The position numbers and the translations under genes were made by a program. Shown here one piece after another: positions 1-61,764 of a DNA stretch of 64,000 bases (position 1 is its first letter; every line of letters starts with the position of its first letter). The stretch lies in the NCBI GenBank assembly GCA_963845755.1, contig CAWJTV010000013.1, positions 1-64,000 of the forward strand, written 5' to 3'. The notes below the pieces were generated by a model, which searched no databases, was not told the origin of the DNA, and worked only from the letters and a program-made list of their open reading frames with translations. The DNA is from an uncultured Planctomycetota bacterium. GTDB lineage: Bacteria; Planctomycetota; Planctomycetia; Isosphaerales; Isosphaeraceae.

Positions 1-117
1 TCTCTGACCGACTGCATCAGCTTCGTGGTGATGGCCGAACGCGGGATCACCGAGGCGTTGACCGGCGATCACCACTTCGAACAGGCGGGTTTCCGAGTCG
101 TCATGAATCGTCCGTGA
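1..117 (+). CDS. PIN-domain (VapC-like) toxin, 3' end only
   Basis: Frame +1 reads SLTDCISFVVMAERGITEALTGDHHFEQAGF..., the typical C-terminus of VapC PIN toxins; stop TGA 115-117. Confidence 0.85.
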   Translation, partial: SLTDCISFVVMAERGITEALTGDHHFEQAGFRVVMNRP

Positions 118-248
118 CGTCGGCTGTGGCCGGAGATCGCAGAGGGAGAGAGGATCGGCGAGTGGAGTCGCCTCCTACAAGGAGAACCCAGAATCCGGCC
201 CTTGTCGGAGCCGGCTTTGTCCGGCTACCCTTCCGCACCGATGCGGTG

Positions 249-817
249 TCAGGACGCCCTTCGTTCCTGCAACATGGCGGAGAACTCCGGCTGCGCCTCG
301 TGCAAGGCGTCGGCAAGCTCTGGCTTCTCCCTGGCGGCCATCTGGAAAATCGGCCCGATCGACGCGGGGTAGAGGACGATATGCAGGAGGATGCCCAGGC
401 GCTGCCGAGGGCGCAGTACAGGACGGAGACGCGGAGACTGCTGATGAAGACGTAGGTGAACAAGGCGGACGTGCTGGCTCCGGTCAGGGTGAGCGTGATG
501 AGCCCGACGAGGCGCGTTGGCACGGTGACGCGGACGAGCCCCAAGAACACGAAGCCGGCAAAGAGCCCCGACGTCAACGGCATGAACATGAGGCCGGGCA
601 GGGCCGCGTACTGGAAGTCCGGGTCGCGCATCTGGCCGAGCTGGCTGACGACGTAGACGACGAAGGCCAGCAGGCCGGCCCAGAAGCCGGCCCAGGCCGA
701 GACCCTCAATTCAGCGGTCCTCGTCGAGTTCGCGATGATCCACGCGAGCACGAAGATTGCCGACATGATCGCGGGGAGGATCACCCATTGGACGGTGGTC
801 GAGATGATCGGTGCCAT
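249..817 (-). CDS. multi-pass membrane protein (frameshift near 395)
   Basis: About 5 hydrophobic helices in ORF 101..817; continues in another frame as GILLHIVLYPASIGPIFQ... to stop at 249-251. Confidence 0.65.
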
Positions 818-993
818 TTCACTTGGTCCTTTTTGCGAGAGACCTAGCCTCTCTGGAGTCGCCTCGGGGCCGGAGCGTATTCCCAGTTCTCAATCAGTGA
901 TACGCGGCGCAGCCCGAAACCTGACAGGATTGCGCGACGAAGGTCCGGAGTCAGGGATCTGGGAAGGGATGACGACGAGGTTGGAGAGGCTCC

Positions 994-3900
994 TTATCGC
1001 CCCCAACCGGAGAGGACGAACGCCGCCCATTGCTTCACCGGCGCGATCCTTCGCAGCGGGTTCCGGATGCCCGGCGCCGGGCACCGGCGCGGGGCGTTGC
1101 ACCACCTTGTCGAAGTCCGGCGTGCCCCGGACCGCGGCCAACTGGCCCACCAGCTCGGGATGGCGATAGAGCCTCAACTGGGCAGTCCGCAGCGCTTCGA
1201 TCGGCGGCTTGTGCAGTCGCCAGAACTGGTCGTAGAAGATTGCCATCAAGGCCGCGGTGGCCTGGTCGTCTACCATCCACAGGCTGGCGACGACGTTGTG
1301 CGCCCCGGCGAGGTGGAAGGCACGCTGGAGGCCGAAGACCCCCTCGCCGCCGGCGACTTCACCCCGGCCGGTCTCGCAGGCCGAGAGGACGGCCAGCTCC
1401 AGGTCCTGCAACGACAGCCCCGCAATGGCCTCGGCGGTGAGGATGCCTCGGTCGTCGCGCACCGTGGGATCGGCGCTGGCACTGGGGCGGTTGGCCCCGG
1501 CCAGGACCAACCCCGAGAGGACCAGCGGGTTGCGCAAGCCGGCGCCGATCCGCTCGCGGCCGATCGAGGAGAAGAGCTTGGGGTCGGGTCGCAGGACCGA
1601 GGGGATGCGGGGATCGGCGAAGAAGCCGTGGGTGGCGATGTGCGCCCAGCGGGCGCGGGGGAGCTCGCGGAGCAACTGGGCGGTGCCGGCATCGGTTCCC
1701 TGGAGGCGGACGGTGGTGCGCGAGCCGGCCGATTTGGCCACGGCGTTCAATTCCTGGAGCGTGCCGGGCAGATCCCCCCAGCCGTCGCCGCGGCCGCGCT
1801 GGGTCTCGGCCGGGCGCGCGGCCAGCAGCTCGACCTGGACTTTCTCATCGTCGACGGGCCTGGGCGCCTGGTCGTAGGCCACGCCGCCGACGGCCAGGAA
1901 GATTCCGGTATCGGCCGCCTCGGACGATCGCGGCGGGGCGGTGAGTCGATCGAGCAGGAATGGAGCGTGGGGGACAGTCGCCAGGGCATATTGCTCCAGG
2001 AGGACCGTTCCCGGCCGATCGCCGGGCAGCGCCGCCCAGGGAATCGCGGTGAGGGACCCGTCGGGGGCGATGATCGCGGTCGACGTATCGGGCGGGAGAT
2101 GTTTCGCCAGCGGTTCCCAGACCAGCCGGCGCAAGGTCTCGGCGGCGGGACTCGATTGGTGATGCTCGATCGCGCTGCGCCACTGGACCACGGCGGCGTC
2201 GATCGGCTGTGCCGGCCCGAGGTCGACCTGCCGCACGGGCCGGCCCTTGGCCAGCACGTAGCCGACGTAACTCGGTGTGTAGTGTTCTCCCTTTTCCCCT
2301 TGATCAGGGGGTCCTGTTCGAAGCGGATGAACCGCAGCAGGTCGAGAACGACGGTGCGCTCGGGGAGCGATTCCAGCAGCTTGGTATACGGACCTTGCTC
2401 CAAGACCCGTTGGCGAGCGAACTGGGGAAGGGCGTCGGCCAGTTGCCGCTCCAGCCGCTCCTTCTCGGTGGTGAGATGCTGGAGCTGTTGGAGCCGCTCG
2501 GGGTGGTCGCGGCCGTCGGCGGTGGCCAGCAGCAGCCGGGCGAGCTGGCCGCGGGTGTCGCGCCAGGCCTGGAGGTCGCGGCGGGTGGCCGGGTGCTCGG
2601 TCGCCCGTTGGAGGAACGCGGCCTGGCGGCTCTGGATCATGCGGGCGATGGCTGCTTTCCCTTTCCAGACTCGAGCATAGGCGGCTTGATTGCTGCCGGG
2701 CACGTGGAAAGAGACCGAAATCAGAGCATCTCGGGTGAGCGGCAACTGGGCCAGATAATTCAGCGCCTCGGCCTCGGAAGTGGCGGCCAGCAGGAGATCG
2801 GCCAGCTCTTGCTGCATGTCCACGGCTTGCTGGATTAAGGGCAGTGCCTCGGTGTCGAGGCGCTGGGCCAGGAGCAGGAAGCCCAGGTTGTTCAGGCCTC
2901 GGGCCAGGTCGGGGTGGCCGTGCGGATACTGCTCCTTGGGATAGATGGCCTGGTTCATCGCCAGCGCACGCTCGAAATACCCCCGCGCCTCGCCGTAGGC
3001 CCCCTGGCGTTGAACAAACCGCCCAGGTTGTTCAGGTTGATGGCGAGATCAGGGTGCCCCCGTGGATATCGTTCTTTGGGGTAGAGGGCCTGGTTCATCG
3101 CCAGCGCACGCTCGAAATACCCCCGCGCCTCGCCGTAAGCCCCCTGCTTCCAGAGCAGGGCGCCCAAGTTGTTCAGGGTGGTGGCCAGTTCGGGGCGTCC
3201 CTGCGGATTCCGAGCCTGGGGGTAGAGGGCTTGGGTCATCGCCAGCGCACGCTCGAGATACCCCCGCGCCTCGCCGTAGCGCCTTGGTCCTGGAGCACCA
3301 AGCCCACTTCGTTCAGGCTGGTGGCGAGATCGGGGTGTCCCTGCGGATACTGGTTCTTGGAGTAGATGGCCTGGCGCATCGCCAGCGCACGGACGTGATA
3401 GACCCGCGCCTCGTTGTAGGCGCCCTGGTACTTGAGCAGGACGCCCAGGTTGCTCAGGCTGAAGGCCAGATCGGGGTGTCCGTGCGGATATCGTTCCTTG
3501 GGGAAGAGGGCCTGTTGCATCGCCAGCGCCACGCTCGAGATACTCTCGCGCCTCGCCGTAGGCGCCCTGGTCCCTGAGCAGGCTACCCAGGTTGTTCAGG
3601 CCGATGGCGAGGTGGGGGTGTCCCTGGGGATTCCGAGCCTGGGGGTAGAGGATCTGTTTCATCGCCAGCGCCACGCTCGTAATACCCCCGTGCCTCGTCG
3701 TAGGTCCCCTGGGCATGGAGCAGCCATGCCCATTTCGTTCAGGCTGAAAGCCAACTCGGGGTGTCCGTGCGGATACTGCTCCTTGGAGTAGAGGGCCAGG
3801 TTCATCGCCAGCGCACGCTCGAGATACCCTCGCGCCTCGCCGTAGTCCTTCTGGGCGTTGAGCAAACCGCCCAGGTCGTTCAGGCTGGTGGCCAGGTGGG

Positions 3901-5178
3901 TGTGGCCCCGCGGATGCCGCTCCTTGGGGTAGAGGGCCTGGTTCATCGCCAGTGATCGCTCGTAATACCCCCGCGCTACGCCATAGTCCCCCTTATCTTT
4001 GAGCAGGGCGCCAAGGTTAGTCAGGCTTTGGGCCAGATCGGCGTGGCCCAGCGGATACGTCTCCTTGGGGTAGAGGGCCTCGCGCATCGCTAATGCTTGC
4101 TGGTAATACCCTCGCGCTCCGCCGTAGTCCCCCTGGGCGCAGAGCAGGAAACCCATCCCGTGCAGGCTGGCGGCCAGTTCGGGGTGGCCTTGCGGATACC
4201 GATCCTCGGGATAGAGGGCCTGGTTCATCTCCAGCGATCGCTGGAGATAGCCCCGCGCTCCGCCGTAGTCCCCCTGGGCCAAAAACAGGCTGCCCAGGTT
4301 GTTCAGGCTTTGGACCAGTTCGGGGTGGCCTTGTCGATACCGGCCCTTGGGATAAAGCGTCTCGCGCATCGCCAATGCTCGCTGGTAATACCCCCGCGCA
4401 CCGCCGTAGTCCTGCTGCTCGTGAAGCACATAGCCCAGGTTGTTCAGGCTGGTGGCCAGTTCGGGGTAACCCTGCGGATACTGCTCCTTGGGGTAGAGTG
4501 TTTCATTCATCACCAGCGCCTGTTGGAAATACCCCCGCGCCCTACCGCAGTCCCCCTGGTCAACGTGCAGCTTGCCTAGGTTGGACAGGCTGGCGGCCAG
4601 GTGGGAGTGACCTTGCGGATACTGCTCCTTGGGGTAGAGCGCTTCATTCATCGCCAGCGCCCGTGGAAGATACCCCCGCGCCCACCGTAGTCCCCCTGGG
4701 CCAGGAGGAGGGTGCCTAGGTTGTTCAGGCTTTGGGCCAGTTCGGTGTGCCCCTGCGGATACGTCTCCTTGGGGTAGAGGGCCTCGCGCATCGCTAATGC
4801 TTGCTGGTAATACCCTCGCGCTCCGCCGTAGTCCCCCTGGGCCTTGAGCAGGAAACCCATCGCGTGCAGGGTTTCGGCTAGTTCGGGATGGCCCTGCGGA
4901 AGCTCGCCCTGAGGATAAATCCGCTCGCGGATCTGGAGAGACTGCCTGGTCTTCTCGACGGCCGCACCAAGATCACCGCGCTGATAGGATCGGAAGCCGG
5001 CTTGGAACAGCTCGGATGCCTGGCGCTCCAGGTCCTTACGCTGCTCGGGCGTCAGCCGCTCCGGTGGATCATCCGCTCGCCCCGTGCAGGCCATCGCGAC
5101 GAGGAAGCAAAGACCCAGCAACCCGGTCACGAGCCGGGTTCGGCTCGAGCCGGATCGAGGAAGAAATGGGTTGATCAT
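994..5178 (-). CDS. exported TPR-repeat CHAT (caspase-like) protease, module 1 (several frameshifts)
   Basis: Signal peptide (LLGLCFLVAMACTGRA), many 46-aa TPR repeats (YPKEQYPQGHPELATSLNNLG), CHAT motifs APDGSL, HIATHGFF (catalytic His), LSACETG (catalytic Cys), VVASLW, C-terminal WAAFVLSG; joined from ORFs 4648..5415, 3659..4651, 3236..3532, 2955..3716, 1747..2958, 890..2257. Confidence 0.9.
2870..4930 (-). repeat. tandem 138-bp coding repeats (46-aa TPR units)
   Basis: Recurrent ttcatcgccagcgcacgctcga...ataccccgcgcctcgccgtag...cccaggttgttcagg units with about 138-nt period. Confidence 0.85.
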
Positions 5179-5237
5179 GAGGGGAATCTCCAAGGAAGTG
5201 CGAACGCGTGGAAGTCGAGCCGAAAGGGCGTGGGCAT

Positions 5238-5979
5238 TCATGACCCACCCTGGTTGGGGAAGATCACCGCCTGGTTGTAATCGCCCAGCGGCTGAACCTT
5301 GTCCTGCAACAGCCGGCGCAGACGGAGCACCGGATCGTCGCTCTTGCGGGTCCTGGACGTCGGAGCGGCACGGTTCTGGGGATCGAGCACCACCTCCCGG
5401 CCGTTCTCGATCCACACGGCCGTGTCGAGGGCCCGACGCGGTTGGGCCGCCGGGAGGGTCAGCCTTTTCGCGAGCTCGGCATCGCGGTCGCGCGGCAGGG
5501 GACGGGTCTCGCGCGCCAGCAGGACGACCGTCTCGAGGCCCGGTGCGCCCGCCGGGATCTCCCAGACGTCGTCCTTCTTCGGTGGCAGGTCAAGCCGGTC
5601 GCGTCTTGACCTCATCCGCCGGGCGTTGATCCCAGTGGCCCCGTTTCCAGGGGTAGATCGGGGCGGCCTTGCCATCGGAGCCGATCCAGAAGACGTAAAG
5701 GTAGGCCGGCCGGTTGAGCTTCGCCTCGATGCGGAACTGGTCGTGCGCCTTGAGCGGCAGGGCGCCCGGCTGGTCGAGCCGGAGGTTGCGGCGGCGGGGA
5801 CTGGCCGGGTCGTCGATCCGGAGGTGGATCGCGCCCCGCAACGGTTCGGCATCGTCGCGACGAGGGTCCGATCGTCGTGGCTCATCGCCCCACGCCCGCA
5901 GGCCGGTGATCGCCAGGGCCACGAGGAGCCAGGCCGTGCGGTGGATCTTCGGAGACGCCTCGCTGGACGCCGCTACGAA
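5238..5979 (-). pseudogene. stand-alone DUF4384-like exported protein, 3' part; 5' end at 7045-7184 separated by a REP/IS insertion
   Basis: Translation AWLLVALAITGLRAWGDE...FRIEAKLNRPAYLYVFWIGSDGKAAPIYPW...GLETVVLLARE...SDDPVLRLR...IFPNQGG is closely paralogous to the C-terminal domain of the upstream kinase. Confidence 0.7.
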
Positions 5980-6017
5980 TGGCCCTGAAGGGGCCAGACA
6001 AACCAGCCCGGGGCAAC
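5980..6017. repeat. REP-like arm (inverted partner at 7006-7044)
   Basis: TGGCCCTGAAGGGGCCagaCAAACCAGCCCGGGGCAAC versus reverse complement at 7006-7044. Confidence 0.7.
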
Positions 6018-7005
6018 CAACTTATTCCATTTGGAACGTAAGTCCTTGTCGATTCACGATCCGCACAGCATTGATCAGCAGTTTGGCCCAGACCCAACGC
6101 CACACCCGCCACGACCGGCGCACCCAGGCCGGCAGCGGACCCAGGCCGCCACCGAAGGAGGTCGCCTGGCCGAAGGATCGCTCGATCGCGCCGCGCATCG
6201 CGTAGAGGCTCTTCCCGAAATCTCCCTGCAACAGCTCGATGCAGCGGAGGCGGTACGGGCTTTGGCGGCGGTGTCCCAGTCCGGCCTTGGGGTCCTCGCC
6301 GGGGCTACCAACTGGTAGCCCGCGGCGCCCGCCGCGTCGAAGACCGGGTTGGCGTCGTACTCGCCATCGCCCAGCACGTAGCCACCGCCGCCGCAGTCGG
6401 CCAATTCCGGCAGCAACTGCTCGGCGGCCTTGGTCTCGGCGACATTCAGCGGTGTGATCGAACACACCTCGGGCATCGGACGGTTGCTCCAGACGGCGTG
6501 CAATTTGTAGCCCTTGGCGATCTTGCCGGCGCCGTGGCCATTGCGGGCATCCGGATCGTGACTGGCACCACCAACCGGCAAGGGCTTACCGTCGAGGATC
6601 TGTACCAACCGCGGGGGGACTACATCGCGGAGCCGCGTCGCCAAAGTCCGCATGAGGACGCCCACGGCCAAGCTCCGGAGTCGTCGGCTCAGAGTCGAGG
6701 GCGCGGGCAAACGACCCGGCTGGAGCGTCGTGGTCTTCCAGTGCCGAGGATCACAAGCCCAGCAGGCCGGTCGATCGTGAAGGGCGGCCCACAGGTGGAC
6801 CAGGACCAAGATGTGGGGCTGGTAGGAGACGTTGACCTGGCGGATCGAGCCACCCACCGCCATGACGAGGTGATACAGTTGCGGCCAGAGTTCCAGTTCC
6901 ATAGTTGCCCTCCTCTGAGGATTGTCTCTACTTCCATACATAGATACGATCCTGGGAGGGAAATTGTTCTGACATAAAGACTTGCGACCTAAATGGAATA
7001 AGTTG
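6018..7005. mobile_element. IS element (about 988 bp) with terminal inverted repeats, embedded between two inverted REP arms
   Basis: TIR CAACTTATTCCATTT at 6018-6032 and AAATGGAATAAGTTG at 6991-7005, imperfectly extended to about 30 bp; contains a DDE transposase. Confidence 0.85.
6022..6902 (-). CDS. DDE transposase (IS4/IS5/IS982-like; one frameshift)
   Basis: Motifs PSTLSRRL, ILDGKPL, GYKLHAV, LGDGEYD, RGAIERSFG; stop codon lies inside the left TIR. Confidence 0.85.
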
Positions 7006-7180
7006 GTTGCCCCGGGCTGGTTTGTTGCGGCCCCTTCAGGGCCAAAATCGGCCCGATGCGGCCTCAAGCCTGGTGGTGTTGGGCGGGAAGGCTCGATCTC
7101 CGTTCTGGACGAGTTGGTCGGCATCCCGACCGACAACTTCCGAACCGGCAATTCCTCGAAGTGATCGGGGTCTCTCATGT

Positions 7181-9111
7181 TCAACGGCCCCCCTGGTTCG
7201 GGACGATGACTGCCCGGTGATACGCGCCAAGAGCGGGGAGTTTCTTTCTCAAGAGCTCGCGGATCCGCAGCACGGGGTCATCGCTCTGGTGCGTCTTCGG
7301 GCCCGGTGCCGAGCGTTCTTGTTTGCCCTGCTCGTCGAAAGTGAATTCCCGGCCGCTCTCGAGCCAGATGGCTGCACGCTTTCGCGGGTCCCCTTCGGGG
7401 AGCTCGGTCCTCTGCGGGCCGGCCAGGTCCCGCTCCAGGGTGGTGTCGGCGTCGCGGGGCAGTGGGCTGTCTTCGCGAGCCAGGAGGACCAGCGTCTCCA
7501 GCCCTGGCGCTGAGGGGGGGAGCGACACCGTCTCGTCGATGACCTCGGGCAGCTCGATGCTCTCGACCTTGGCCTCGTGGGCCGGCCGCTGGTTCCAATC
7601 CCGTTCCTCCCAGGGGTAAAGCGGCGCAACCTTGCCGTCGGAGCCGATCCAGAACAGGTACAAGTACGCCGGGCGGTTGACCCCAGCCTCGACGCGCACC
7701 TCATCGCCGGGCTTGATCGGAACGGCGCCCTGCTCGTACAGCCGCAGGCCGCGACGCAGGGCGTTCCCCCGCTCGTCAACCCAGAGGGTGATCTTGCCGT
7801 GGAGTGGCGCGGGATCACTCGGAGGCGCCGGCGCTATCACGACCTGGGGGCTTTGCGAAGGGGCGGGCTCCGGCCGGTGCCACACGTAGTTGAGAATCAG
7901 CAGCGTGATCACCGCCAGGGCGGCACACGGCCGACAGCACGGCCTGAACCCGCGGCAAGGTCAGATAGCGATTGAGGGCTTTCTGGAAGGCCTCGGCCGA
8001 GGGATAGCGTTGGTCCGGGTCGGCGGCGAGGGCCTTGAGGCAGATCCGCCTCAGCCCGCGCGGGACCTTGGCCAGGCGGAGGGCCTCCTTCGGGAAGTCG
8101 CAACGCTTGGCGCGGTCCCAGATTTCCTCCGTGGTCTCGCCCACGAACGGCTGCTGGCCGGTGAGCAGCTAATATAAGACCGCACCCAGCCCGAAGATGT
8201 CACTCCGCGGGCCGATCCGGTCGTGCTCGAACCGGGCCTGCTCGGGGGCCATGTAGGCCAGCGTGCCGCCCCAGGTCGGGTCGGGTCGGTCGGACCAGGC
8301 GTGCCGCAAGCTCGCCAGGCCGAAGTCGATCAGCCGGGGCTCGACTCGATTCGTCGATCAGGATGTTCCGGGGCTTGATGTCGCGGTGGATGATCCCCCG
8401 CCGGTGTACCATCGCCAGGGCACCAGCCAGTTTGGCCACCAACTCCGCGGCCCGGCGCGGCGTGATCGGCTCGTTGGGGGCGTGGTCCTCCAGGTTGCTC
8501 GGCCGTGGACGTACTCCATCACCAGGAAGGGCGGCCATCGTGGAAGTCGAGGTCGTAGATCTTCAAGAGGTTGGCGTGCTTTCCAGGGCGATCAATGCCG
8601 GCCCTCCCGACAAGCGAGGTGTGCTCGTCGTCGCCGACAGGTTGGCGGCCCAGCTTGAGGACCATGTTCTGGCCCAGCTCGGGGTGGATGACCAGGTAGA
8701 CGTCCCCCTGGGCGCCTCTGTCGAGCTGTTCGACGACCTGGTACCTGCCGATGGCGCACGGGCCGCTCGGCCTTCACTCGGCGCGATCTGCGGGCCTCGG
8801 CCACGGCGTCCGGCCCCAAAGGTTCCGAGGTTCGCCGTCTCGAGCGGGTCGGACGTCCAGTCCAGGGTTGTTTCGCCGCCTGATGGCTGGCCCTCGGGGT
8901 GCAACGCCGGGTCAGGTACGGTCGAAGCCGCACTCAACCCGCTCTTGAGGGCCTGGCGCACCTCGGCCAGGTCGGCCCGGAGCCGCTCCAGGCGGGCGCG
9001 GCAGTCGGGACATCCCCCCAGATGCTGCTCGACCACCTCGGCGTCCGGCTCGCCGGTGACCAGCTTCAGCAATTCGGCGTCGTCAGGACAGGTCGGAATC
9101 GCAGAAGTCAT
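7181..9111 (-). CDS. Zn-finger anti-sigma-like / Ser-Thr protein kinase / TM / DUF4384-like protein, module 1 (frameshifts and one in-frame TAG)
   Basis: N-terminal CPD...[38 protein letters not shown] segment; C-terminal VRVEAGVNRPAYLYLFWIGSDG domain; TAG at 8169-8171 replaces Glu of VLYELLT. Confidence 0.85.
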
Positions 9112-9702
9112 CGTCGCATTCCCCCTCGAGCTCGACGCAGCGGCGCCGGACCTCTTTCAGGACACGCGAGGCGTTGACAAAGACGTGGTTGGCCGTGATC
9201 CCCAACTCGGCGGCGATCGTCGCGGCTGGACGGTCCTCGATCAGCCGACCCGTGAAGCACGCCCAGGCCGTCAATGAGACGGTTGCCAAACTTGCGGCAG
9301 CACGACCTCGAGGATCCGCTCGCGGTGCCTCTTGAGGAAGATCACCTCCAGCTCCCGGCTTTGGGACTGGTTCATCTCCCGAAACTGGCGAATCCACTCC
9401 TCTTGCACCCGGTCGCGGACCTTCCTCCGCCGTGCCCAATCGATCAGCGTATTGTGAGTGAATTTCCACAGGTACGTGCGGAATCGGCGCACGGCGCGGT
9501 CCAACTTGAACTTCGGCAGGGCGGCCAACAGCCGGATGAAAACCTCCTGCGTCAGGTCGTTGGCGTCAAACTCAGCCAGACCCAGCCCACGCAGATAACC
9601 GAAGATCAACGGACGGTAGATCTCGTGGAACTCGCGCCAGCTCGCTCCGTCGGCCGGGTTGCGGACCCGCTCCACAAGTGATATCCGGGTCGTCTCGGTC
9701 AT
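9083..9702 (-). CDS. ECF sigma-70 factor (kinase-associated planctomycete type), module 1 (frameshift)
   Basis: TRISLVERVRNPADGASWREFHEIYRPLI, DLTQEVF, FRTYLW, region 4 IAAELGITANHVFVNASRV. Confidence 0.9.
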
Positions 9703-9794
9703 GGCGATCACACCTGTGTACATCAGATCAGAATCTCTGGGATCGGCACAATTGTCGAGATGAGCGCCGAGATGCGGGTGGCGGCTCCCATCAC

Positions 9795-9820
9795 GTTACA
9801 CATCTCGGCGCGGCGATTCC
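9795..9820 (-). promoter_or_regulatory. putative ECF promoter GGAAT-N16-GTAAC upstream of sigma 1
   Basis: Minus strand GGAATcgccgcgccgagatgtGTAAC; same boxes and spacing conserved upstream of sigma 2. Confidence 0.6.
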
Positions 9821-9983
9821 AGGAGGCGCCCCAGCGATCCGCGACCGGCCGATCCGCTCGACCGCCTCGATCGAACCCGGGAGTCCTGCCCCACTCATTG
9901 TTACGCACCCCGGGCGCGAACCTTACAAGGTCATCCGGTCATCGTTCCCCGATCACCGACCCGTTGGCAGTTGAGCGCGCGGA

Positions 9984-10044
9984 AAAAGGGGACAGGCACC
10001 CGGCCCGCCGGCACTTGGCCCGAAATCCCCAGGACCATGCCGGG
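9984..10044. repeat. REP-like hairpin downstream of CHAT 2
   Basis: aaaggggacaggcacccggcccg ... cgggccgggagcccgtcccctttc inverted arms. Confidence 0.55.
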
Positions 10045-10141
10045 CCGGGAGCCCGTCCCCTTTCTCCGGTCCCGTGTGCCGTCCGAGTGGGATACGCTCC
10101 AGCCGGCCAGCATTCCGGATCGGGGGACACCTCGCACGCAT

Positions 10142-13100
10142 TCAGTCCGGGTCACCCACCAGCACGAACGCGGCCCAGAACCGCGGATGACCGAACGGCC
10201 GCGGGCCGGTAGGCGGGGGCTGCTGAGGCGGCTGAGGTGCTACCGATTTGCCGGCCGAGGCCAGCGGGCGCACCGTCCCGCGCTGCGATAACGCGGTCAG
10301 CTCGTGGATCACCTCATCCCGGGTGAGGTTCCGCAACCAACGCTTGGCCTCGTCCAGCGCCTCGGCCTTGGGCATCGGCTTGGTGAGCCCCGGCCGCTCG
10401 CCGAGCAGGTTCTGGTAGAACCGCACCATCAAGAGCGCGGTGGCGACGTCGCTCACGCTCCACTGGCTCAGCACCAGGCTGCGGGCTCCCTTGATGAACA
10501 GCGCCTGGGCGAAGCCCAGATAACCCTCGCCGCTGGCCTGCCGGCCGAGTCCGGTCTCGCAGGCGGAGAACACCACCATGTCGGCATCGAGGGTCCAGGT
10601 GTTGAGGATCTGCTCGGCCGTGATCCGGCCGTCGGACTCGATTGCCGAGAGCCTCGAGGGCGGGCGGCCACCCGCGTCGGGGCCCAGGATCAGGGCGGAG
10701 CTCATCGCCACATCGGGGTCGACTGACCCGTGGGTCGCGAAGTGGAGGAACCGCAACTGCGCCAGTTCTCCCGAAGCGGCCAGATGCTGGACCGCTCCCT
10801 CCGTGGCCTGCGCGCCGAGGAGTGTCGTCGCTGCCGCCGTGGGGAAGAGCGCGGCGATCGCCTGGACTTCGCGGCGCGTGCCGGGCAATCGCGGCAGCGG
10901 GTTCGCCGACCGTGGATCATAGAGCGGGTCGCCCACGGCCAGGAGCTTCCGCGCGCGAGGACGGCTCGCGCCCGCCTTCACGAGCTGGGCGAACAGGGTC
11001 CCGGAGGGCGCGTAGGAGACGACCAGCGGCGGACCGTCCGTCCGGGCTTCCACCAAGACCTCGATGGGAATGCCGGCCATGTCCGGTGATGGGAGCACGA
11101 TCAGCCGGCGGAGGCCCTTGAGATGGGGCGCGAGCGGCGCCAGCCGCTGGCGGGCGACCCGGGCGGCCTGCTCCCGCCAGTCGGAGTCCGCGTCCAGCAG
11201 GGCGACGCGGAGCTCTTCCCGGAGCCGATCATCCGGATCCGTCCAGGCTCCATCCGCCCCACTTCCCGGGGCCCGAATCCAGATCGGATCCCCCTCGGGC
11301 GCGCACCAGGCACGCCCAGTGCAGGGATACCGTCCGTTGCTGATCCTTCACATCCACCCAGCCGACCAGGGCCGCGTCGGGCGGCAGCGTGGCCTGGATC
11401 GCTTCCAGCGAAGTCCGCTTGCCGCCGAACGCCCCGTACTGGGCCTCGAATGCCTGATCGAGTTCCAGCAGCCGTCCGTTCAGGGTGTCCCGTTGTCGGC
11501 GCAGGCGGTCCAGCACGACCTGGGTTTGCGCGCTGGGGACGCGGTTCTCGGTCAGGTCGCCGATCTGCTCGTCGAACTGCTGGATCTGTCGGCGGAGGCG
11601 CTCTTCCTGGGTCCGCTGCGCGGGGGTCAGCGGCCGGAGCTGTCGGGCCGAGAGGTCGTCGAGCAAGCCCTGGCCCAGGCTCGACTCCCACCGCCTCCAG
11701 GCCTCGCGGACTTGACCCTGCGAGGCCAGGGCGGCGGCCAGCGCAGGCTGCGGGTCATAACGGACGGCCTGCGATCTCCCCAGCCCCGATCGGCTCAGCG
11801 CCCGTCGGCCTCTCTCGAAGCCATCGGATGCGGCCGTCCAGGAGGTGATCGCCTCCGCGGTCCGGCCGAGCGCCTGCAAGGCATAAGCGAGATTGTTGTA
11901 GGCCAGTGCCGTCTCGGGGTGGTCCTCGCCCAGCGTCTTGCGCCGGATGTCCAGGGCCTTCTGGGACGGGGGCAAGGCGTCGGCGTACCGTCCCTGGCGG
12001 GCCAGATCGTCGGCCAGATTGTGGTAGGCCAGGCCGGTGTCGGGGTGATCCTCGCCCAGGACCTTGCGACGGACCTCCAGGCTCTTCTGATACAGGGGCA
12101 AGGCGTCGGCGTACCGACCTTGACGGGCCAGGCTGAAGGCCAGGTTGTGATAGGCTGTCGCTGTGTCGGGGTGATCCTCGCCCAGGACCTTGCGGTAGAT
12201 GTCCAGGACCTTCTGGTGCAAGGGCAAGGCGTCGGCGGGCCGCTTCTGTTGATCCAGGTTCATGGCCAGGTTGTTGTAGGTCTGAGCGGTGTCGGGGTGG
12301 TCCGCGCCCAGGACCGCGAGCCGGATCTCCAGGGCTTTCTCGTACAGGGGCAGCGCGTCCGCATAGCGCCCCTGCTCGTCCAGGTTGGCACCAGATTGTT
12401 GTAGGCCGTTGCGGTGCTGGGGTGGTCCTCGCCCGCGACCCGGCGGTAGATGTCCAGGGCCCGCTGGTGCAGGGGCAGGGCGTCGGCATGCCGCCCCTGA
12501 CGATCCAGGTTGGCGGCCAGGTTGCCATAGGCCATTGCGGTCTCGGAGTGGCCCTCGCCCAGGACCTTGCGCCGGATCTCCAGGGCTTTCTGGAACAGGG
12601 GCAGTGCGTCAGCATGCTGTCCCTGACGATCCAGGTTAGCGGCCAGATTGTTATAGGACACCGCGGTGCTGGGGTGGTCCTCGCCCAGGAGCTTGCGCCG
12701 CAGCTCCAGGGCCTTGCGGAAGAGGGGCAAGGCGTCGGCATGACGCCCCAACTCACCCAGGTTGGTCGCCAGACTGTTATAGGCCATCGCGGTGCTGGGG
12801 TGGTCCTCGCCCAGGCCCTTGCGCCGGAGCTCCAGGGCCTTCTGATACAGGGGCAGTGCGTCGGCACGCCGCCCCTGCTCATCCAGGCTGACGGCCAGGT
12901 TGTTGACGGGCGTCGCCGTCGCAGGGTGGTCCGCGCCAGCCAGCGTCGGCGGGTTTCGATCACGGCGCGATAGATTTTCTCGGCCTCGCGGTACGCGTGC
13001 TTTCGTTCCAGGGCGACGGCTCGGCGCTCTTCGGAATAGGCCGAGCTCATGGCGCGCTGGCCTTCCGCAGGGAGGCTCGCCAGCTCCTTGATCAGGTCCA

Positions 13101-13408
13101 ATCGATAACGCGAGCCGACCGTCTCCCAGTGCCCTGCACCGAGCAGCCTGGTGCGAATCTCGAGCACTTCGCGAGCGGGAACCAGGGCCTCCGCGAACCG
13201 CCCCGCATCCTCGAGCTGGCTGATCTGCCGGTTGAGGGCGGCAACCTTCGAGGCCGCTTCCTTGGTGAGACGACGCGGCGCAGGAGGAAGAGACGTTTCT
13301 CTTCTCTTTTTCGGTTTGCGATACAAGCCCGGCGGCTGGAGCCAGGGTCACCACCGTTGTGACGACGATCAAGAGGCTGATGGATTTAACCGGGGATCGA
13401 GGTGTCAT
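10142..13408 (-). CDS. exported TPR-repeat CHAT protease, module 2 (several frameshifts)
   Basis: Signal peptide (SISLLIVVTTVVTLAPAAG), 42-aa TPRs (LGEDHPSTAMAYNNLA), CHAT motifs LPGTRRE, HFATHGS, FSACETG, VLSQWSV, FWAAFVLVG. Confidence 0.9.
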
Positions 13409-13451
13409 GAAGGGTGTTCCGGATGGGATGCCTATTGCACGATCGATGGGA

Positions 13452-15314
13452 TTACCGTCGGTTCTTGACAGGAAAGGCGAGAGCCTGGATCGCCTCGACT
13501 CCGGGACCGGCCCGGAGGGCGCGGCAGGCCGCTTCCAGTGACGGCGGCAGGTCGGCCAGGGGACGGACATCGCCGCGCGGGGTGTCGCGACCGAAAGAGC
13601 GTCCGTTGTATTGCCAGACGTTCTCGATCGGGGCCGGTTTCCAGGGCAGATTGCCGAGCTTGCGAGTCCATTCGCCATAAGGCGGCAGGGGCTGGGCCGA
13701 GGCGACCAGGACGAACGCCTGTGTGCCGGCCCCGTCGGTCAGGCCGAAACCCGAGAGTGGGTCGGGCGGGTAGTCAATCGTGGCCGTCGCGGCCGGGGCG
13801 ATCTCGGGCGATTTGGGATAACAGAGCTGGGTCGTGCCGTTGGGATTCAAGGCGATCAGAAAGCAATGGGCGGGGATGCTGAGCTGGACCTGAACGCGGA
13901 CATCCTGTTCGACCCGGCTCACGAAGGCCTCGCTTCCGATCCGTCCCGCGGGATCACCCGGCACGCGGCCGTGAAGCTCGGCATGGAACGATTCGACTCG
14001 CAGCGCCGCGGGCGTCAACGAGATCGGTGCTGATGGGGCGCGTTCAATCACCACGGTGGAGATTTGAGACGGGATGGGGTCCGGCCGGGGCCACACGTGA
14101 TTGAGCACCAAAGGCCCGAGCACGGCGAGGGCGCATGCAGCCGACAGCACGCCCAGAACCTTCGGCCGGATGAGATACGCGCCGCAATGCCTTCTCGAAG
14201 GCCTCGGCCGAAGGATAGCGCCGGTCCGGATCTGCGGCCAGGGCCTTGAGACAGATCCGCACCAGCCGTCGCGGGACCTTGGCGAGGCGGAGGGCGTCCT
14301 TCTCGAAGTCGCAACGCTTGGCGCGGTCCCAGATTTCCTCCGTGGTCTCGCCCACGAACGGCGGTTGGCCGGTGAGGAGTTCGTACAGGACCGCACCCAA
14401 ACCGAAGACATCGCTCCGCGGGCCGATCCGGTCGTATTCGCGTCGGGCTTGCTCGGGGGCCATGTAGGCCAGCGTGCCGCCCCAGGTCGAGTCGGGGCAG
14501 TCGGACCAGGCGTGCCGCAGTCGCCCAGGCCGAAGTCGATCAGGCGGGGCTCACCCGATTCGTCGATCAGGATGTTCCGCGGCTTGATGTCGCGGTGGAT
14601 GACCCCTCGCCGGTGGACCATCGCCAGGGCGCCGGCCAGCCTGGCCACCAGTTCCGCCGCTCGTCGCGGAGTGATCGGCTCGTCGCGGGCGTAGTCCTCG
14701 AGGTTCCGGCCGTGGATGTACTCCATCACCAGGAACGGCTGCTCGTTGTGGAAGTCCAGGTCGTAGATCTTCACCAGGTTGATGTGCTCCAGGTCTTTCA
14801 GCAGCCGGCCCTCCTTGACGAGTGAGACACGCTCGTCGCCGCCGACAGGCCGGCGACCCAGTTTGAGCACCATGTCCTGGCCCAGCCCGGGATGGATCAC
14901 CCGGTAGACGTCCCCCTGGGCTCCGCTGCCCAGCGTCTCGACGACCAGGTATTTACCGATGGCGCCGGGCCGCTCGGCCTGCGCCTCGGCGCGTTGCCGG
15001 GCTGCGGCGACCGCCTCCGGCCCGATCGGTTCCGGAGCCGCCGTCTGAAGCGGGTCGGACGTCCAGTCGAGGGTCGTCCCGCCGCCTGATGGCCGGCCTT
15101 CGGGGTGCAACGCCGGGTCGGGCTCGGTCGAAGGGGGGATCCGGCCGCCTTCGAGATCCCGGCGCAAGGCCGTCAGCTCGGCCCGGAGCCGCTCCAGGCG
15201 GTCGCGGCAGTCGGGACATCCTTCCAGGTGCTGCTCGATCGCCGCGACGGCCGGCTCGCCGGTGGCGACCGGCAGCAGCTCGTTCTCGTCAGGACAGGTC
15301 AGAATCGGAGCCAT
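13452..15314 (-). CDS. Zn-finger / Ser-Thr kinase / TM / DUF4384-like protein, module 2 (local frameshift pair near 14520 and 14185)
   Basis: [54 protein letters not shown]-terminal [22 protein letters not shown] domain. Confidence 0.9.
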
Positions 15315-15904
15315 CGTCCCATTCCCCCTCGAGCTCGGCGAAGCGGCGCCGGACCTCTTGCAAGACCCGCGAGGCGTAGACATAGACGACGGTCGGCTTG
15401 ATCCCCCGCTCGGCGGCGATCGTCGCGCCCGGCCGGCCCTGGACCAGCCGTCCCTCGAAGCACGCCCAGGCCGTCAATGAGACGGTTGCCCGAACCTGCG
15501 GCAGCACGACCTCCAGGGATCCGCTTGCGGTGCCGATTGCGGAAGATCCCCTCCAGCTCCCGGCTCTCGGACTCATTCATCTCACAGAATCGCCGTCCCC
15601 ACTCCTTTTCCGCACGGTCCCGGACCTTCCCCCGGCGCACCCAATCGATCATCGCGTTGTGCGTGAGCTTCCACAAATACGTGCGGAATCGACCACGTGT
15701 CCGGTCCAGCTCGAAGGTCGGTAGGATCGCCAGCAGCCGCTGGAAGACCTCCTGCGCCAGTTCGTGAGCATCATGCTCCTCGAGGCCAAGGCTGCGCAGA
15801 TATCCGAAGATCACCGGGCGGTAGATTTCGTCGAACTGGTTCCAGCTCGCGGCGTCCGCGAGGTCGCGCACCCGCATCAGGAGCGATAATCGGGTCTCGG
15901 ACAT
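15289..15904 (-). CDS. ECF sigma-70 factor, module 2 (frameshift)
   Basis: TRLSLLMRVRDLADAASWNQFDEIYRPVI, ELAQEVF, RGRFRTYLW; paralog of 9083-9702. Confidence 0.9.
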
Positions 15905-15997
15905 GGCGATCGTACTCGCGATCATCGGATCAGGATCCCTGGGATCGGCACAATTGTCGAGATGGGCGCCGATGTCCTGGGAGCGTACTCACATCAG

Positions 15998-16023
15998 GTT
16001 ACACGGCCCGACGCGGCGATTCC
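15998..16023 (-). promoter_or_regulatory. putative ECF promoter GGAAT-N16-GTAAC upstream of sigma 2
   Basis: Minus strand GGAATcgccgcgtcgggccgtGTAAC. Confidence 0.6.
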
Positions 16024-16564
16024 AGGAAGTGCTCGGATGATCCGCGACCTACTGACCAACGCCGGCCGCTTGAACCTGGAGCGCCTCACACTTGCGTGGC
16101 ACGCGCCCCGCGCTGGGGCACGGTCTGCCGACCTGGCCACCCGGCCGACCGCAGGTCCCCTCCGGGACTCGCCGACCGATGCGGGTGTCATCACGTGGCA
16201 CAATGGGACATCTTTTTGCCAGGGCGCCCTCCCCGATCTCCTTGGCGGATATCCGGTTGCGACGACGACCTGGACCGGGAGGCGCGGTCCGGGAGTCCGT
16301 CTCGGCAGTGATCGCACGTGGGCCATACTCTCAGGATGCCGCAACTTTGGAAAACCGTTAATGCACCTAGCGGGGATTTCGGCCGAGAGCCGCCCCAACT
16401 CTCAGCCCCAGCGGCAGATAAAAAATCCCAAATTATTTTCCGCCTGAAGTTTAGCGGGGGCTTCGCGTCGTCCCGGGGCGTGCGGAATCCAACCGATAGG
16501 CGCTCTAGCCCCAATCCCGTTGAATCAGCGTTAAGCCTAAGAAAAGACGAGACTTGCGAATACC

Positions 16565-57724: not shown

Positions 57725-58336
57725 ATGAGCGATACGCCGACGACACGACCCAGCCTGTTGGTCCGGCTGCGCGACCCGATGGACGGGCGGGCCTGGAGCG
57801 AGTTCGTCGAGATCTATAACCCGTTGATCCATCGGCTTGCGCGACAGCGTGGGCTCCAGGAGGCCGATGCCGCCGACCTGGCGCAGGAGGTCTTCCGGGC
57901 CGTCGCCAACGCGATCGAGCGGTATGATCCCGACCCGGCCAAGGGCTCGTTCCGCGGCTGGCTCTCCACGATCGCCCGCAACCTGATCGTCAACCTCCTC
58001 AACGCCCAGCGGCGCCACCCGCGCGGCACGGGAGACTCCGACGTCCAGCAGCTTCTCGAGGCGCAGCCGGCCCCCGATTCGGACCAATCCGTGATCTTCG
58101 ACGCGGAATACCGCCGCCGGATGCTCGACTGGGCGGCCGAACGGGTCCGCGACGAGTTCTCCGAGCTGGTCTGGCTGGCCTTCTGGCGGACCGGCGTTGA
58201 TGGTCAGTCCGCCGAGGAAGCGGCGCGGGGTCTGGGACTGTCGGTCGGGACCGTCTATCAATACAAGAGCCGGGTCGTCGCCCGGCTCCGCCGAGAGATC
58301 GAACGCTTCGAGGATAAGACCAGCGACCACTCCTGA
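57725..58336 (+). CDS. ECF sigma-70 factor (kinase-associated)
   Basis: TRPSLLVRLRD, AWSEFVEIY, DLAQEV, GSFRGWL, VYQYKSRV. Confidence 0.95.
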   Translation: MSDTPTTRPSLLVRLRDPMDGRAWSEFVEIYNPLIHRLARQRGLQEADAADLAQEVFRAVANAIERYDPDPAKGSFRGWLSTIARNLIVNLLNAQRRHPRGTGDSDVQQLLEAQPAPDSDQSVIFDAEYRRRMLDWAAERVRDEFSELVWLAFWRTGVDGQSAEEAARGLGLSVGTVYQYKSRVVARLRREIERFEDKTSDHS

Positions 58337-58347
58337 AGGGCACAACG

Positions 58348-61300: not shown

Positions 61301-61764
61301 CGGACCGGCCTTTCCATGCCCGGACCAGTGGGGCTAGCACGTTGGAGGGGTCGATCCGCGCCGGGGATATCGACTTCGACATCAGCGGGGCCAGCACGCT
61401 GAAGCTGGGCGGATCCGCCCGCGGGGCTCGAATGCTCGCCAGCGGTGCGAGCAAACTGGAGCTGGCAGGCTGGCAGGTGAATGGGGAGAAACTCATCCTC
61501 GATGTTAGCGGTGCCAGCTCGGTTCGGCTCGGCGGTTCGGCTCGAGCCGCTTCGCTGAAGGCGGAGGGCGCCAGCCAGCTCCACCTGGCCGACCTGGTTC
61601 TCGAGGCCGCAGACGTCGTACTCGACGGCGCATCGTCCGCGACCGTGCGGGTCAAGAGCCTGCTGAACTATGATGTAAGCTCCGCATCGACGTTGGTCTA
61701 TCTCGGAGAACCCACCATCGGTAAGGCCAGGAAGACCGGCATGTCCTCGGTCTCACATCGCTGA
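58348..61764 (+). CDS. Zn-finger / Ser-Thr kinase / 3 TM / two GIN (DUF2807) beta-helix domains
   Basis: HLDRCDTC, LGEGGMG, HRDIKPSN, DFGLA, GTPQYMSPE; DFT.V/I, ADDN.LD, SGAS repeats, YLGEP. Confidence 0.92.
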   Translation: MVNRISACDPDRLRSYLDDDLSADEQAELAGHLDRCDTCQQALERLAAGSGIWRDLRHLGSPSDASMTGLKPEDHLSRSWGKPKPAALREGIDLNFLAPSENPAYLGRLGPYEVIGVLGEGGMGVVLKAFDPSLSRVVAIKVLAPQMAASGAARRRFSREAKAAAAVVHDHIISIYAVDNDPVSSLPYLVMPCVAGHSLQERIDRDGPLRIEEILRIGRQTALGLAAAHAQGLVHRDIKPSNILLENGVERVKITDFGLARAMDDASQSQSGVVAGTPQYMSPEQASGESSDHRSDLFSLGSVLYAMCAGRSPFRAKTTMGVLRRVCDESPRPLVEINPEVPEELEAVIERLHAKDPALRYQTAAEVAEVLGQQLAQLQRPGARVRRCAAVASPQPVAAVSPAVKKAEPVDDWAPVKPRLRVEKFVVPALLILFCLAVIGATIGWEATPLVASLLLLLGVTAAGTAAHLGRHRIQALGWHSFALLVLLGMVAVGTFALFTSSGPVPSQAVIAAGFVEPPAHGVVTNQNESQTIVGSGKPATKAWNLADFTSVEIIHPFRAELVRGDRFAVSVTADDNVLDHIQVVKEDTRLRIGLEDNRSYRLRRDSLKVAIAMPALGSLGLSHGARATIKGFESHQPFEARLSHGSVLEGTLAAGRLALDATHGSEIALKGTAETTRLVAAHGSELPLEGLAFRDAEIQLSHGATATIDAKPEKELKAELHHGSTLTGVIQGGTVELEAGHGSRASLKGSARTARLTGNFSSQLPLGELTLEGADVHLGHGSSATVNATSKLDYHLDFSSNLKYHGNPTIGTSSKSHGSSARTIRPGDEAAEKPSAARQDQRRPSGTARSARRGDEIITIDLRSGGNGGRTIWINQAGGPAGVIEGSGRKATKTVDVKDFTVIKIEHTLQADVTRADAFQVRLTADDNILDRIEVVREGSTLRIGLARGSYRLQESPRASITLPILDEIDLSGASRATIQGFASDRPFHARTSGASTLEGSIRAGDIDFDISGASTLKLGGSARGARMLASGASKLELAGWQVNGEKLILDVSGASSVRLGGSARAASLKAEGASQLHLADLVLEAADVVLDGASSATVRVKSLLNYDVSSASTLVYLGEPTIGKARKTGMSSVSHR

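Follow-up and report, generated by a model that had tools for sequence, protein, structure and literature searches.

We examined two neighbouring gene sets, here called modules A and B, at the extreme start of contig CAWJTV010000013.1 from an uncultured bacterium of the Isosphaeraceae (Planctomycetota; assembly GCA_963845755.1). The window is the 64,000-nucleotide stretch formed by positions 1 to 64,000 of this contig, and both modules lie co-oriented on its minus strand, in region 890-16025. Each combines a sigma factor of the extracytoplasmic function (ECF) type, a Hanks-type kinase with an N-terminal zinc anti-sigma domain, one transmembrane segment (TM) and a DUF4384-like ectodomain, and a putatively exported protease in which a CHAT domain follows an array of tetratricopeptide repeats (TPR-CHAT). 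Comparison of gene neighbourhoods indicates that the conserved core of these modules is the kinase-ectodomain plus the TPR-CHAT protease, and that the sigma factor is optional. The observation is well beyond chance, and its mechanistic interpretation is partly supported: with modest confidence, we lean towards the reading that each module would be an autoregulated trans-envelope signalling operon in which a periplasmic protease acts on the DUF4384 sensor of the kinase, by binding or cleavage.

Counts in the host genome show what the protease accompanies. Of its 297 kinase loci, 8 carry a DUF4384-like ectodomain and 7 of these have a CHAT within 9 kb downstream, compared with 1 of the 289 kinases lacking such an ectodomain. 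When only the 89 ECF-linked host kinases are considered, a CHAT follows all 7 that possess the ectodomain and none of the 82 that do not. The window also contains an internal control, a third ECF/zinc-finger kinase pair (about 57743-61764; 58348-61761 by narrower bounds) with DUF2807 in its ectodomain, which is not followed by a CHAT; no further CHAT match was found on the contig.

The same link extends to other genomes. The ectodomain type of module B (type B) is present in 34 of the 121 genomes of the host family, and 73 rows, less 4 from the host's own genome and 3 fragments of the same genes, gave 66 loci, which were annotated with hidden Markov models (HMMs) built for that purpose. Four were dropped because the contig ends before the downstream gene. 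Among the remaining 62, a kinase is fused upstream of the ectodomain in 54, and 52 of these kinase loci, across 27 genomes, have a same-strand CHAT, at median gaps from the ectodomain of 461 nt to the first TPR match and 2402 nt to the CHAT itself. The other 8 have no kinase match; 4 of them have a CHAT and 4 are stand-alone ectodomain genes. The ectodomain type of module A (type A) occurs in 22 of the 121 genomes; 20 loci were fetched, 2 of which end too early, and 17 of the 18 that could be evaluated have a CHAT. With a general ECF HMM, no more than 18 of the 66 type-B loci had a sigma factor detected upstream, and 34 type-B kinase loci have the CHAT and no detectable sigma; of the 20 type-A loci, an ECF sigma is present in 14 and the zinc domain in 16. 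Therefore, the neighbourhood of ECF sigma, kinase-DUF4384 and CHAT that a first-pass annotation, made from the sequence alone, had expected to find conserved is upheld for kinase-ectodomain and CHAT but not for the sigma factor. The sigma-free loci and the host-genome counts together argue that what the protease tracks is the ectodomain, and neither the sigma nor the kinase by itself. A search with a smaller ectodomain alignment returned 19 loci, all planctomycete-titled and nearly all in the existing set, and the relatives are titled Isosphaeraceae or Planctomycetota. A single-protein scan with CHAT B gave 3 loci, one of which (L003) again has the ectodomain followed by a TPR-CHAT, and searching with alignment A1 of the whole kinase yielded 80 generic kinases, an uninformative result.

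These counts also bear on whether the TPR-CHAT is simply an output, that is, a periplasmic protease placed under sigma/kinase control for envelope remodelling, nutrient proteolysis or defence, without contact with the ectodomain. Its position downstream in the same operon, behind a putative autoregulated promoter, would suit such a role, as would the two or three TPR-CHAT genes that often follow one kinase (for example in L116, L126 and L131), which resemble an expandable effector set. However, a pure output would not be expected to stay with the ectodomain in 34 kinase loci without a detected upstream ECF sigma, nor to be missing beside every one of the 82 other ECF-linked kinases in the host. 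In addition, ectodomain type predicts CHAT type, and DUF4384 is fused to caspase-fold proteases elsewhere, as described below. We therefore consider this explanation unlikely; if the protease were an output only, the finding would reduce to an ordinary co-regulated operon.

Domain calls in the window are Pfam matches on its own reading-frame pieces, and together with the coordinates they bear out the first-pass annotation's two co-oriented, operon-like sets of sigma factor, kinase with DUF4384-like domain and TPR-CHAT. From 5' to 3', module B consists of a promoter-like motif, sigma B, kinase B and TPR-CHAT B; module A follows directly, with its motif, sigma A, kinase A, an insertion sequence (IS), a stand-alone DUF4384-like gene and TPR-CHAT A. 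The features, all on the minus strand, are as follows.

15998..16025, minus: ECF-type promoter-like motif of module B, CTGGAATC-N15-GTGTAAC, 73 nt 5' of the sigma B ATG
15289..15925, minus: ECF sigma factor B (Sigma70_r2, 1.8e-11); one apparent frameshift near 15520
13452..15314, minus: kinase B, with putative zinc anti-sigma domain, Hanks kinase domain, one TM and DUF4384-like ectodomain; two compensating frameshifts
15159-15314, minus: putative CHCC zinc anti-sigma domain of kinase B
14197-14957, minus: Hanks kinase domain of kinase B
13455-14009, minus: DUF4384-like ectodomain of kinase B
10142..13408, minus: TPR-CHAT protease B, beginning MTPRSPVK... at 13408; TPR part (TPR_12, 6e-66) with 3 or more apparent frameshifts
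10145-11164, minus: CHAT domain B (Pfam CHAT, 1.8e-60)
9795..9822, minus: ECF-type promoter-like motif of module A, 72 nt 5' of the sigma A ATG
9083..9723, minus: ECF sigma factor A (Sigma70_r2, 5.9e-14); one apparent frameshift, C-terminal part in a different frame
7181..9111, minus: kinase A, with putative zinc anti-sigma domain, kinase domain, TM and DUF4384 ectodomain; 4 or more apparent frameshifts in the kinase domain
7184-7825, minus: DUF4384 ectodomain of kinase A (30.3 bits, cut-off 27; 4.4e-7)
about 6007..7100, minus: insertion sequence with DDE_Tnp_1 transposase (Pfam, 3.8e-11), outside the module proper
5238..about 5990, minus: stand-alone, putatively secreted DUF4384-like paralogue (ecto2); one frameshift, 5' end abutting the IS
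890..5178, minus: TPR-CHAT protease A, beginning MINPFLPRS... at 5178; about 6 apparent frameshifts within its long TPR array
1154-2149, minus: CHAT domain A (Pfam CHAT, 6.1e-58)

The overlap of sigma and kinase genes that had been remarked on at first pass amounts to 29 nt in module A (sigma stop 9083-9085, kinase ATG 9111) and 26 nt in module B (sigma stop 15289-15291, kinase ATG 15314), and TPR-CHAT B starts 44 nt past the kinase B stop. Directly 3' of TPR-CHAT A, positions 101-817 (minus strand) encode a 238-aa multi-pass membrane protein without a Pfam match.

The two modules had been taken for a tandem duplication, a view that their divergence does not support. Although the sigmas are 66% and the zinc domains 67% identical, the CHAT domains share only 34% identity, the two proteases differ in their kinds of TPR repeat, and ectodomain B gave no match to ectodomain A at 1e-8. 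Judged by these comparisons, A and B are two old subtypes and not recent duplicates, and both recur elsewhere in the host genome, on contigs C9, C11 (twice), C19 and C29. The host modules have diverged to 30-60% identity yet retain the ectodomain-CHAT link. We compared pairwise distances for the 53 of 93 annotated loci with an ectodomain match and a single-frame CHAT match spanning the catalytic dyad. Ectodomain and CHAT distances were correlated (rho 0.80, reached in 0 of 999 permutations), also within genomes (rho 0.79, 41 pairs), in comparison with a rho of 0.26 between the ectodomain and its own kinase domain.

In both proteases, dense TPR_12/TPR_10 arrays precede the CHAT domain. The catalytic His and Cys, which the first-pass annotation had reported as kept, are present in the same contexts in both copies (...ATHG... 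and ...SACETG...) and are invariant in all 17 intact partner proteins from other genomes. Both CHATs fit PF12770 and the separase/Craspase fold with its His-Cys dyad, and catalysis is predicted. The N-terminus of protease A has a hydrophobic stretch ending in ...LVAMAC, that of protease B is hydrophobic as well, and 33 of 52 TPR-CHAT partners have a strongly hydrophobic N-terminus after basic residues, many of them ending in A-x-A or A-Q, as judged by a crude hydropathy measure and not by SignalP; most of the other 19 have a start that is broken or wrongly chosen. These signal-peptide-like N-termini, together with the single TM ahead of the ectodomain, fit the proposal that protease and DUF4384 both lie outside the cytoplasm. 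A sequence search with CHAT B alone found no solved relative, but its structural model (pLDDT 79.8) has as top fold match Csx29 of Craspase (7y84_C, E 4.1e-9), followed by DdvA (8rw5, E 1.9e-8, 18% identity), SAVED-CHAT and separases (E up to 1e-6). Complex prediction for the TPR-CHAT partner of locus L120 (residues 286-1085) with its cognate ectodomain gave an ipSAE of 0.00 in two runs, a result that weighs neither way on binding.

Several further observations concern these proteases. A PDZ_6 domain, matching the PDZ of DegP at about 1e-10, is inserted inside the CHAT of 9 of the 17 intact partners from other genomes (L087, L088, L092, L096, L098, L129, L137, L138 and L145) and is absent from both window CHATs. 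Tandem sets of two to three TPR-CHAT genes follow one kinase in L086, L102, L115, L116, L121, L126, L131, L137, L139 and L145. We rejected one candidate fusion of CHAT and DUF4384 (P0106) as a read-through, as its second part keeps its own Met and an internal signal peptide.

At the N-terminus of each kinase, zf-HC2 matches at its cut-off in A (22.2 bits, 1.5e-4) and just below it in B (20.7 bits). Both carry the CHCC pattern Cys...His-x3-Cys-x2-Cys (C7, H30, C34 and C37 in kinase B), which is conserved across the zinc-domain-bearing members of alignment A1, and these N-termini fit the class I zinc anti-sigma domain (ZAS), for which sigma binding is predicted. The catalytic part is recognised by Pkinase (4.8e-29) with a C-lobe match (1.9e-11) in a different frame; HRD, DFG and APE motifs are retained in both proteins, and one hydrophobic segment precedes the ectodomain. 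Kinase B has 52 full-length homologues of about 600-640 aa, and the homologues of kinase A, up to 91% identical, are every one a kinase.

Ectodomain A is a PF14326 domain above the gathering score (30.3 vs. 27 bits). Ectodomain B itself receives no PF14326 call from Pfam, although 3 of its 52 homologues do; the type-A HMM cross-matches type-B ectodomains weakly, and both types align over a core motif, PAY.YLIA..PDG. The ectodomain alignment contains a conserved Cys pair, and the structural model (pLDDT 92.8) is a beta-sandwich followed by a small alpha/beta element. Confidence drops in one place only, at residues 151-160 (mean pLDDT 61), where a loop rich in indels carries a nearly invariant Arg-Gly (R155); this loop is a candidate cleavage site. 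Foldseek returned no match at E <= 0.001 with the model, and a profile search with the ectodomain found no solved relative. VIA-align gave generic beta-sandwich matches only, Ig-like or macroglobulin-type (Z <= 7.1), of which the closest is the macroglobulin-type beta-sandwich of alpha-2-macroglobulin/complement (Z 7.1, rmsd 2.0, 86 residues), a likeness that may reflect merely a common arrangement, as may any Z under 8. The free gene ecto2 is 49-55% identical to ectodomain A and has a hydrophobic N-terminal stretch like its orthologues; no ATG start was seen. Its orthologue, a free DUF4384-like gene whose product has a signal-type N-terminus of its own, was seen in 10 of the 20 type-A loci, positioned after the TPR-CHAT.

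Some kinases and ectodomains depart from the usual architecture. The metagenome protein P0003 (552 aa), from a single short contig (1815 bp) and possibly a chimera, has about three TPR_12-type repeats between the TM and a type-B ectodomain, so that this kinase bears repeats resembling those of the usual protease partner. The zinc-domain-free type-B kinases P0032, P0035, P0036, P0044, P0050 and P0051 have in common an N-terminal motif, ...ACDRFEAAW..G..PRIE.YL..., with no Pfam annotation. The stand-alone type-B ectodomain genes L113, L114, L122 and L144 have no CHAT, and an ECF sigma lies nearby on the opposite strand in the last three, an arrangement that may represent a kinase-less anti-sigma variant.

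We also examined DUF4384 beyond the host family. Of 301 genomes sampled across the phylum, 52 have PF14326, and Pfam annotation of 40 DUF4384 open reading frames (ORFs) from outside the family (40 of the 43 best rows, 3 being omitted as adjacent or partial duplicates) identified 10 that are fused to a kinase, 4 fused to Peptidase_C14, 1 fused to Peptidase_S8 and 1 with TPR, DUF4384 standing alone in the remaining 24. According to the available part of Klemencic et al., DUF4384 is found C-terminally on trypsin + p20 proteins and co-occurs with kinases, and the accessible text on Craspase describes the C-terminal domain of Csx30 as DUF4384 in one ortholog group (bioRxiv 10.1101/2022.08.17.504292), which strengthens the analogy to Csx29/Csx30 drawn in the first-pass annotation. 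By domain assignment, DUF4384 thus accompanies caspase-fold proteases in at least three independent settings.

Such company could also mean that influence runs in the opposite direction, with DUF4384, whether kinase-borne or free, docking, inhibiting or baiting the CHAT at the membrane, and the kinase and sigma reporting on or setting protease availability. DUF4384 as a C-terminal appendage of Peptidase_C14 and as a neighbour of Peptidase_S8 is adaptor-like, a soluble paralogue is co-encoded in half of the type-A loci (10/20), and the fold resembles alpha-2-macroglobulin/complement domains, at a generic level only. However, that match lies within the range of common beta-sandwiches, and an attached cytoplasmic anti-sigma domain and kinase argue for a read-out inside the cell. 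This direction of control seems to us distinctly doubtful.

Sigma70_r2 matches both window sigmas, the sigma-4 part of sigma B lying in a different frame, and intact orthologues (203-211 aa) are recognised by TIGR02937 at 63.7 and 62.1 bits (cut-off 42.9), with a weak Sigma70_r4_2 match. Both window proteins are therefore ECF (group 4) sigma-70 factors. Their sigma-2.2 acidic motif before L-x-QEVF reads DAND in A and DAHE in B (DAQE, DADE or DAHD in orthologues); because this DAED-like motif is kept, the window sigmas fall outside the definition of the ECF43-type factors that need phosphorylation. Within the window the pair CTGGAATC-N15-GTGTAAC was found at 2 sites, where shuffled sequence would be expected to give 0.01, and the count over the 14.27-Mb genome is 4; it stands at a near-equal distance from both sigma start codons, and orthologues have related pairs, GGAAT...CGTAA or TGTAAGG...CGTATC. 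The motif looks like a putative autoregulated ECF promoter common to both sigmas. The plus strand of the window also encodes, within 57743-61764, a third ECF sigma, for which tblastn gives 31% identity to sigma B; it is followed by an unbroken 1138-aa zinc-finger + Pkinase protein whose ectodomain consists of four DUF2807 (GIN-domain) repeats.

The sequence of both modules is interrupted by about 18 apparent frame changes over 15 kb, as counted from HMM matches in shifting frames and from both sigmas; a GC3 frame plot was too noisy for frameshift placement. We read them as assembly errors. The CHAT genes on other contigs of this assembly (14.27 Mb, 49 contigs, 87.9% complete) are likewise split, the region lies at the start of its contig, and the catalytic and metal-binding residues are all kept in both modules. 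A public sequencing run sharing 10% of sampled words covers 13 of 30 bins of the region at low depth and allowed one frameshift site to be checked. Its 151-base, short-read-like contig, covering 14390-14539, has one extra base behind 14524, the exact point at which kinase B leaves frame, and this base restores the canonical DFGLARLRHAW. Error density would have to be uneven, since the 1138-aa ORF elsewhere in the window is unbroken.

The IS lies 80-140 nt past the kinase A stop and was probably active recently, because seven further copies, 97.4-99.6% identical, are found on six other contigs (C19, C32, C29, C34 with two, C25 and C41). We take the IS in copy A to be real, and it may impair that copy. 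Directly behind it, ecto2 sits before TPR-CHAT A, whereas orthologues have the free gene after the TPR-CHAT. Could both window copies then be decaying pseudogenes, with real frameshifts and an IS-broken operon? The contrast between some 18 frame changes in 15 kb and the intact 1138-aa ORF would agree with decay, as would an IS within module A and an ecto2 without an obvious ATG. However, the sole frameshift for which independent sequence exists is corrected there, other host CHAT genes are split alike in a genome of 87.9% completeness, every catalytic and zinc-binding residue is kept, and consensus quality is presumably often lower at a contig end, where the region lies. Decay of both copies therefore appears very improbable.

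If the modules are signalling operons of the kind we favour, the TPR array of the exported protease would recognise a periplasmic protein cue, the protease serving as the input device. The CHAT domain would then dock on the DUF4384 ectodomain of the kinase and probably cut it, a candidate site being the nearly invariant Arg in the flexible loop. Such a cut would resemble site-1 cleavage. Its effect on the cytoplasmic anti-sigma/kinase portion would be a change of state, brought about either by subsequent proteolysis within the membrane, possibly by an M50 enzyme (M50 site-2 proteases are encoded in the host genome), or by switching of the kinase. The sigma, once freed, would transcribe its own operon from the GGAAT...GTGTAAC motif, and phosphorylation by the kinase may fall on the sigma, on the kinase itself or on other targets. 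The free type-A DUF4384 paralogue could act as a decoy, co-substrate or co-receptor. Because the protease stays where the sigma is absent, the protease-ectodomain step would be the core of the mechanism and the sigma one of several outputs; and since the kinase bears a class I zinc anti-sigma domain, sequestration of the sigma is at least as likely as its activation by phosphorylation. In the RseA-DegS-RseP pathway, the ectodomain of a single-pass anti-sigma factor is cleaved by a site-1 protease that is periplasmic and PDZ-gated. By comparison, CHAT would be a cysteine rather than a serine protease, the window CHATs have no PDZ, and the anti-sigma protein carries a kinase.

Several points weigh against this scheme. 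Contact, cleavage and the direction from protease to sensor are all inferred. Two type-B kinase loci (L101 and L104) have no downstream CHAT. The difference between 7/8 and 1/289 in the host genome overstates independence, because the seven host modules are paralogues. The correlation of ectodomain and CHAT distances mostly reflects the A/B split: within type B rho falls to 0.41, and for within-genome type-B pairs to 0.13, which is not significant (317/999). Moreover, duplication of modules as units would give the same correlation without contact. Across the phylum, a CHAT lies near only 4 of the 40 outside-family DUF4384 loci, so that the ectodomain-CHAT link is specific to a subfamily. The putative signal peptides were called by crude hydropathy, and the putative promoter from two occurrences and related orthologue motifs. 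Finally, the read support for intact genes, though specific, is thin, consisting of one contig at depth 2.6 that covers 1 of about 18 sites and maybe comes from the same sample.

We found no description of an ECF/kinase-DUF4384/exported TPR-CHAT module in the literature searched, the coverage of which was incomplete. This agrees with the first-pass annotation, which had not recognised a characterised pathway but had overlooked the closest system, DdvA/DdvS of Myxococcus xanthus (PMC11506125). As described in the available text of that article, DdvA/DdvS likewise comprises an ECF sigma held by the CHCC zinc anti-sigma domain of a single-pass membrane protein, and a periplasmic TPR-CHAT of separase/Craspase fold that is the presumed sensor and site-1 protease. 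In the same source, the anti-sigma polypeptide has the TPR-CHAT as its own periplasmic domain, with an active site described as incomplete. In the modules studied here the TPR-CHAT is instead a separate, putatively exported protein with a complete and conserved His-Cys dyad, and what the anti-sigma protein bears is a Hanks kinase together with a DUF4384-like ectodomain. By analogy, the best reading of the module is a split, kinase-bearing relative of DdvA/DdvS. Because the protease and its presumed substrate are separate and the dyad is intact, binding and cleavage could be tested in vitro without the natural signal.

Since DdvA/DdvS controls a CBASS-CRISPR island (PMC11506125, as far as its available text goes), the modules might likewise sense the periplasm for phage or conflict, with the tandem, diversifying TPR-CHATs as pattern receptors for invader proteins and a defence regulon elsewhere as output. 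At least seven diversified modules in the host genome and the tandem TPR-CHAT arrays are compatible with this role. However, neither CBASS or CRISPR genes, as in the Myxococcus island, nor other defence genes were seen in the operons, and PADLOC matches are limited to the generic kinase domain (models PD-T4-6 and mad6), with no model matching CHAT, ectodomain or sigma. Such a role, which we regard as improbable, is compatible with protease action on the DUF4384 sensor, as it concerns role and not mechanism.

The type III-E Craspase likewise has a TPR-CHAT (Csx29), an ECF-type sigma partner (RpoE) and a sigma-binding substrate, Csx30, which in one ortholog group ends in DUF4384 (bioRxiv 10.1101/2022.08.17.504292, in the text available). 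It is cytoplasmic, RNA-guided and bound to Cas7-11; here, by contrast, the protease has a putative export signal, the sigma-binding part would be a zinc anti-sigma domain fused to a kinase, and no cas gene is among the operon domains listed, although no search was aimed at cas genes. With that same limit, the PADLOC result agrees with the first-pass annotation that no CRISPR component is present. Likeness to the fold of Csx29 does not by itself confer Craspase membership, and the export-type N-terminus and the lack of a PADLOC match argue against it.

Among classified sigma factors, ECF62 (supplement to Casas-Pastor 2021, available in part) is likewise planctomycete, with a one-TM kinase bearing an N-terminal zinc finger encoded at position +1, as in both window modules. 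Its sensory domain is given there as WD40, and the likeness is one of gene and domain arrangement. The partial supplementary text mentions neither DUF4384 nor CHAT for ECF59-62 and ECF217, and the sole ECF group for which it mentions CHAT is ECF54 of Actinobacteria. In the portions of Casas-Pastor 2021 and PMC8999054 (which lists it under 'proteolysis') available to us, ECF54 likewise lies beside a CHAT-TPR protein and other proteases, without a classical anti-sigma factor; its context is a subtilase and a carboxypeptidase-regulatory-like protein, in contrast to the kinase, zinc anti-sigma domain and DUF4384 found here. The ECF43 pairs EcfP/PknT and EcfK/PknS (PMC8999054, same portions) likewise place an ECF sigma beside a transmembrane Hanks kinase. 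However, ECF43 lacks the DAED motif (STTA in EcfP, compared with DAND and DAHE in the window), and its kinases have no anti-sigma domain.

A bolder reading is possible, which we hold only tentatively and regard as the less likely one: there would be a family of bacterial 'protease-activated receptor kinases' whose partner, the exported caspase-like protease, senses the ligand. A cut at the Arg loop would switch the kinase and, if it comes with a zinc anti-sigma domain and a sigma, free that sigma, and caspase-fold proteases in general would use DUF4384 as a recognition or substrate module. If true, this view of DUF4384 would tie together the operons described here, the caspase-DUF4384 fusions and the DUF4384-type Csx30 of Craspase. 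The module would give a first mechanism for the planctomycete ECF/kinase groups, known so far from genomics only, and would offer a role for DUF4384, which is encountered alongside caspase-fold proteases in settings that range from cyanobacteria to type III-E CRISPR.

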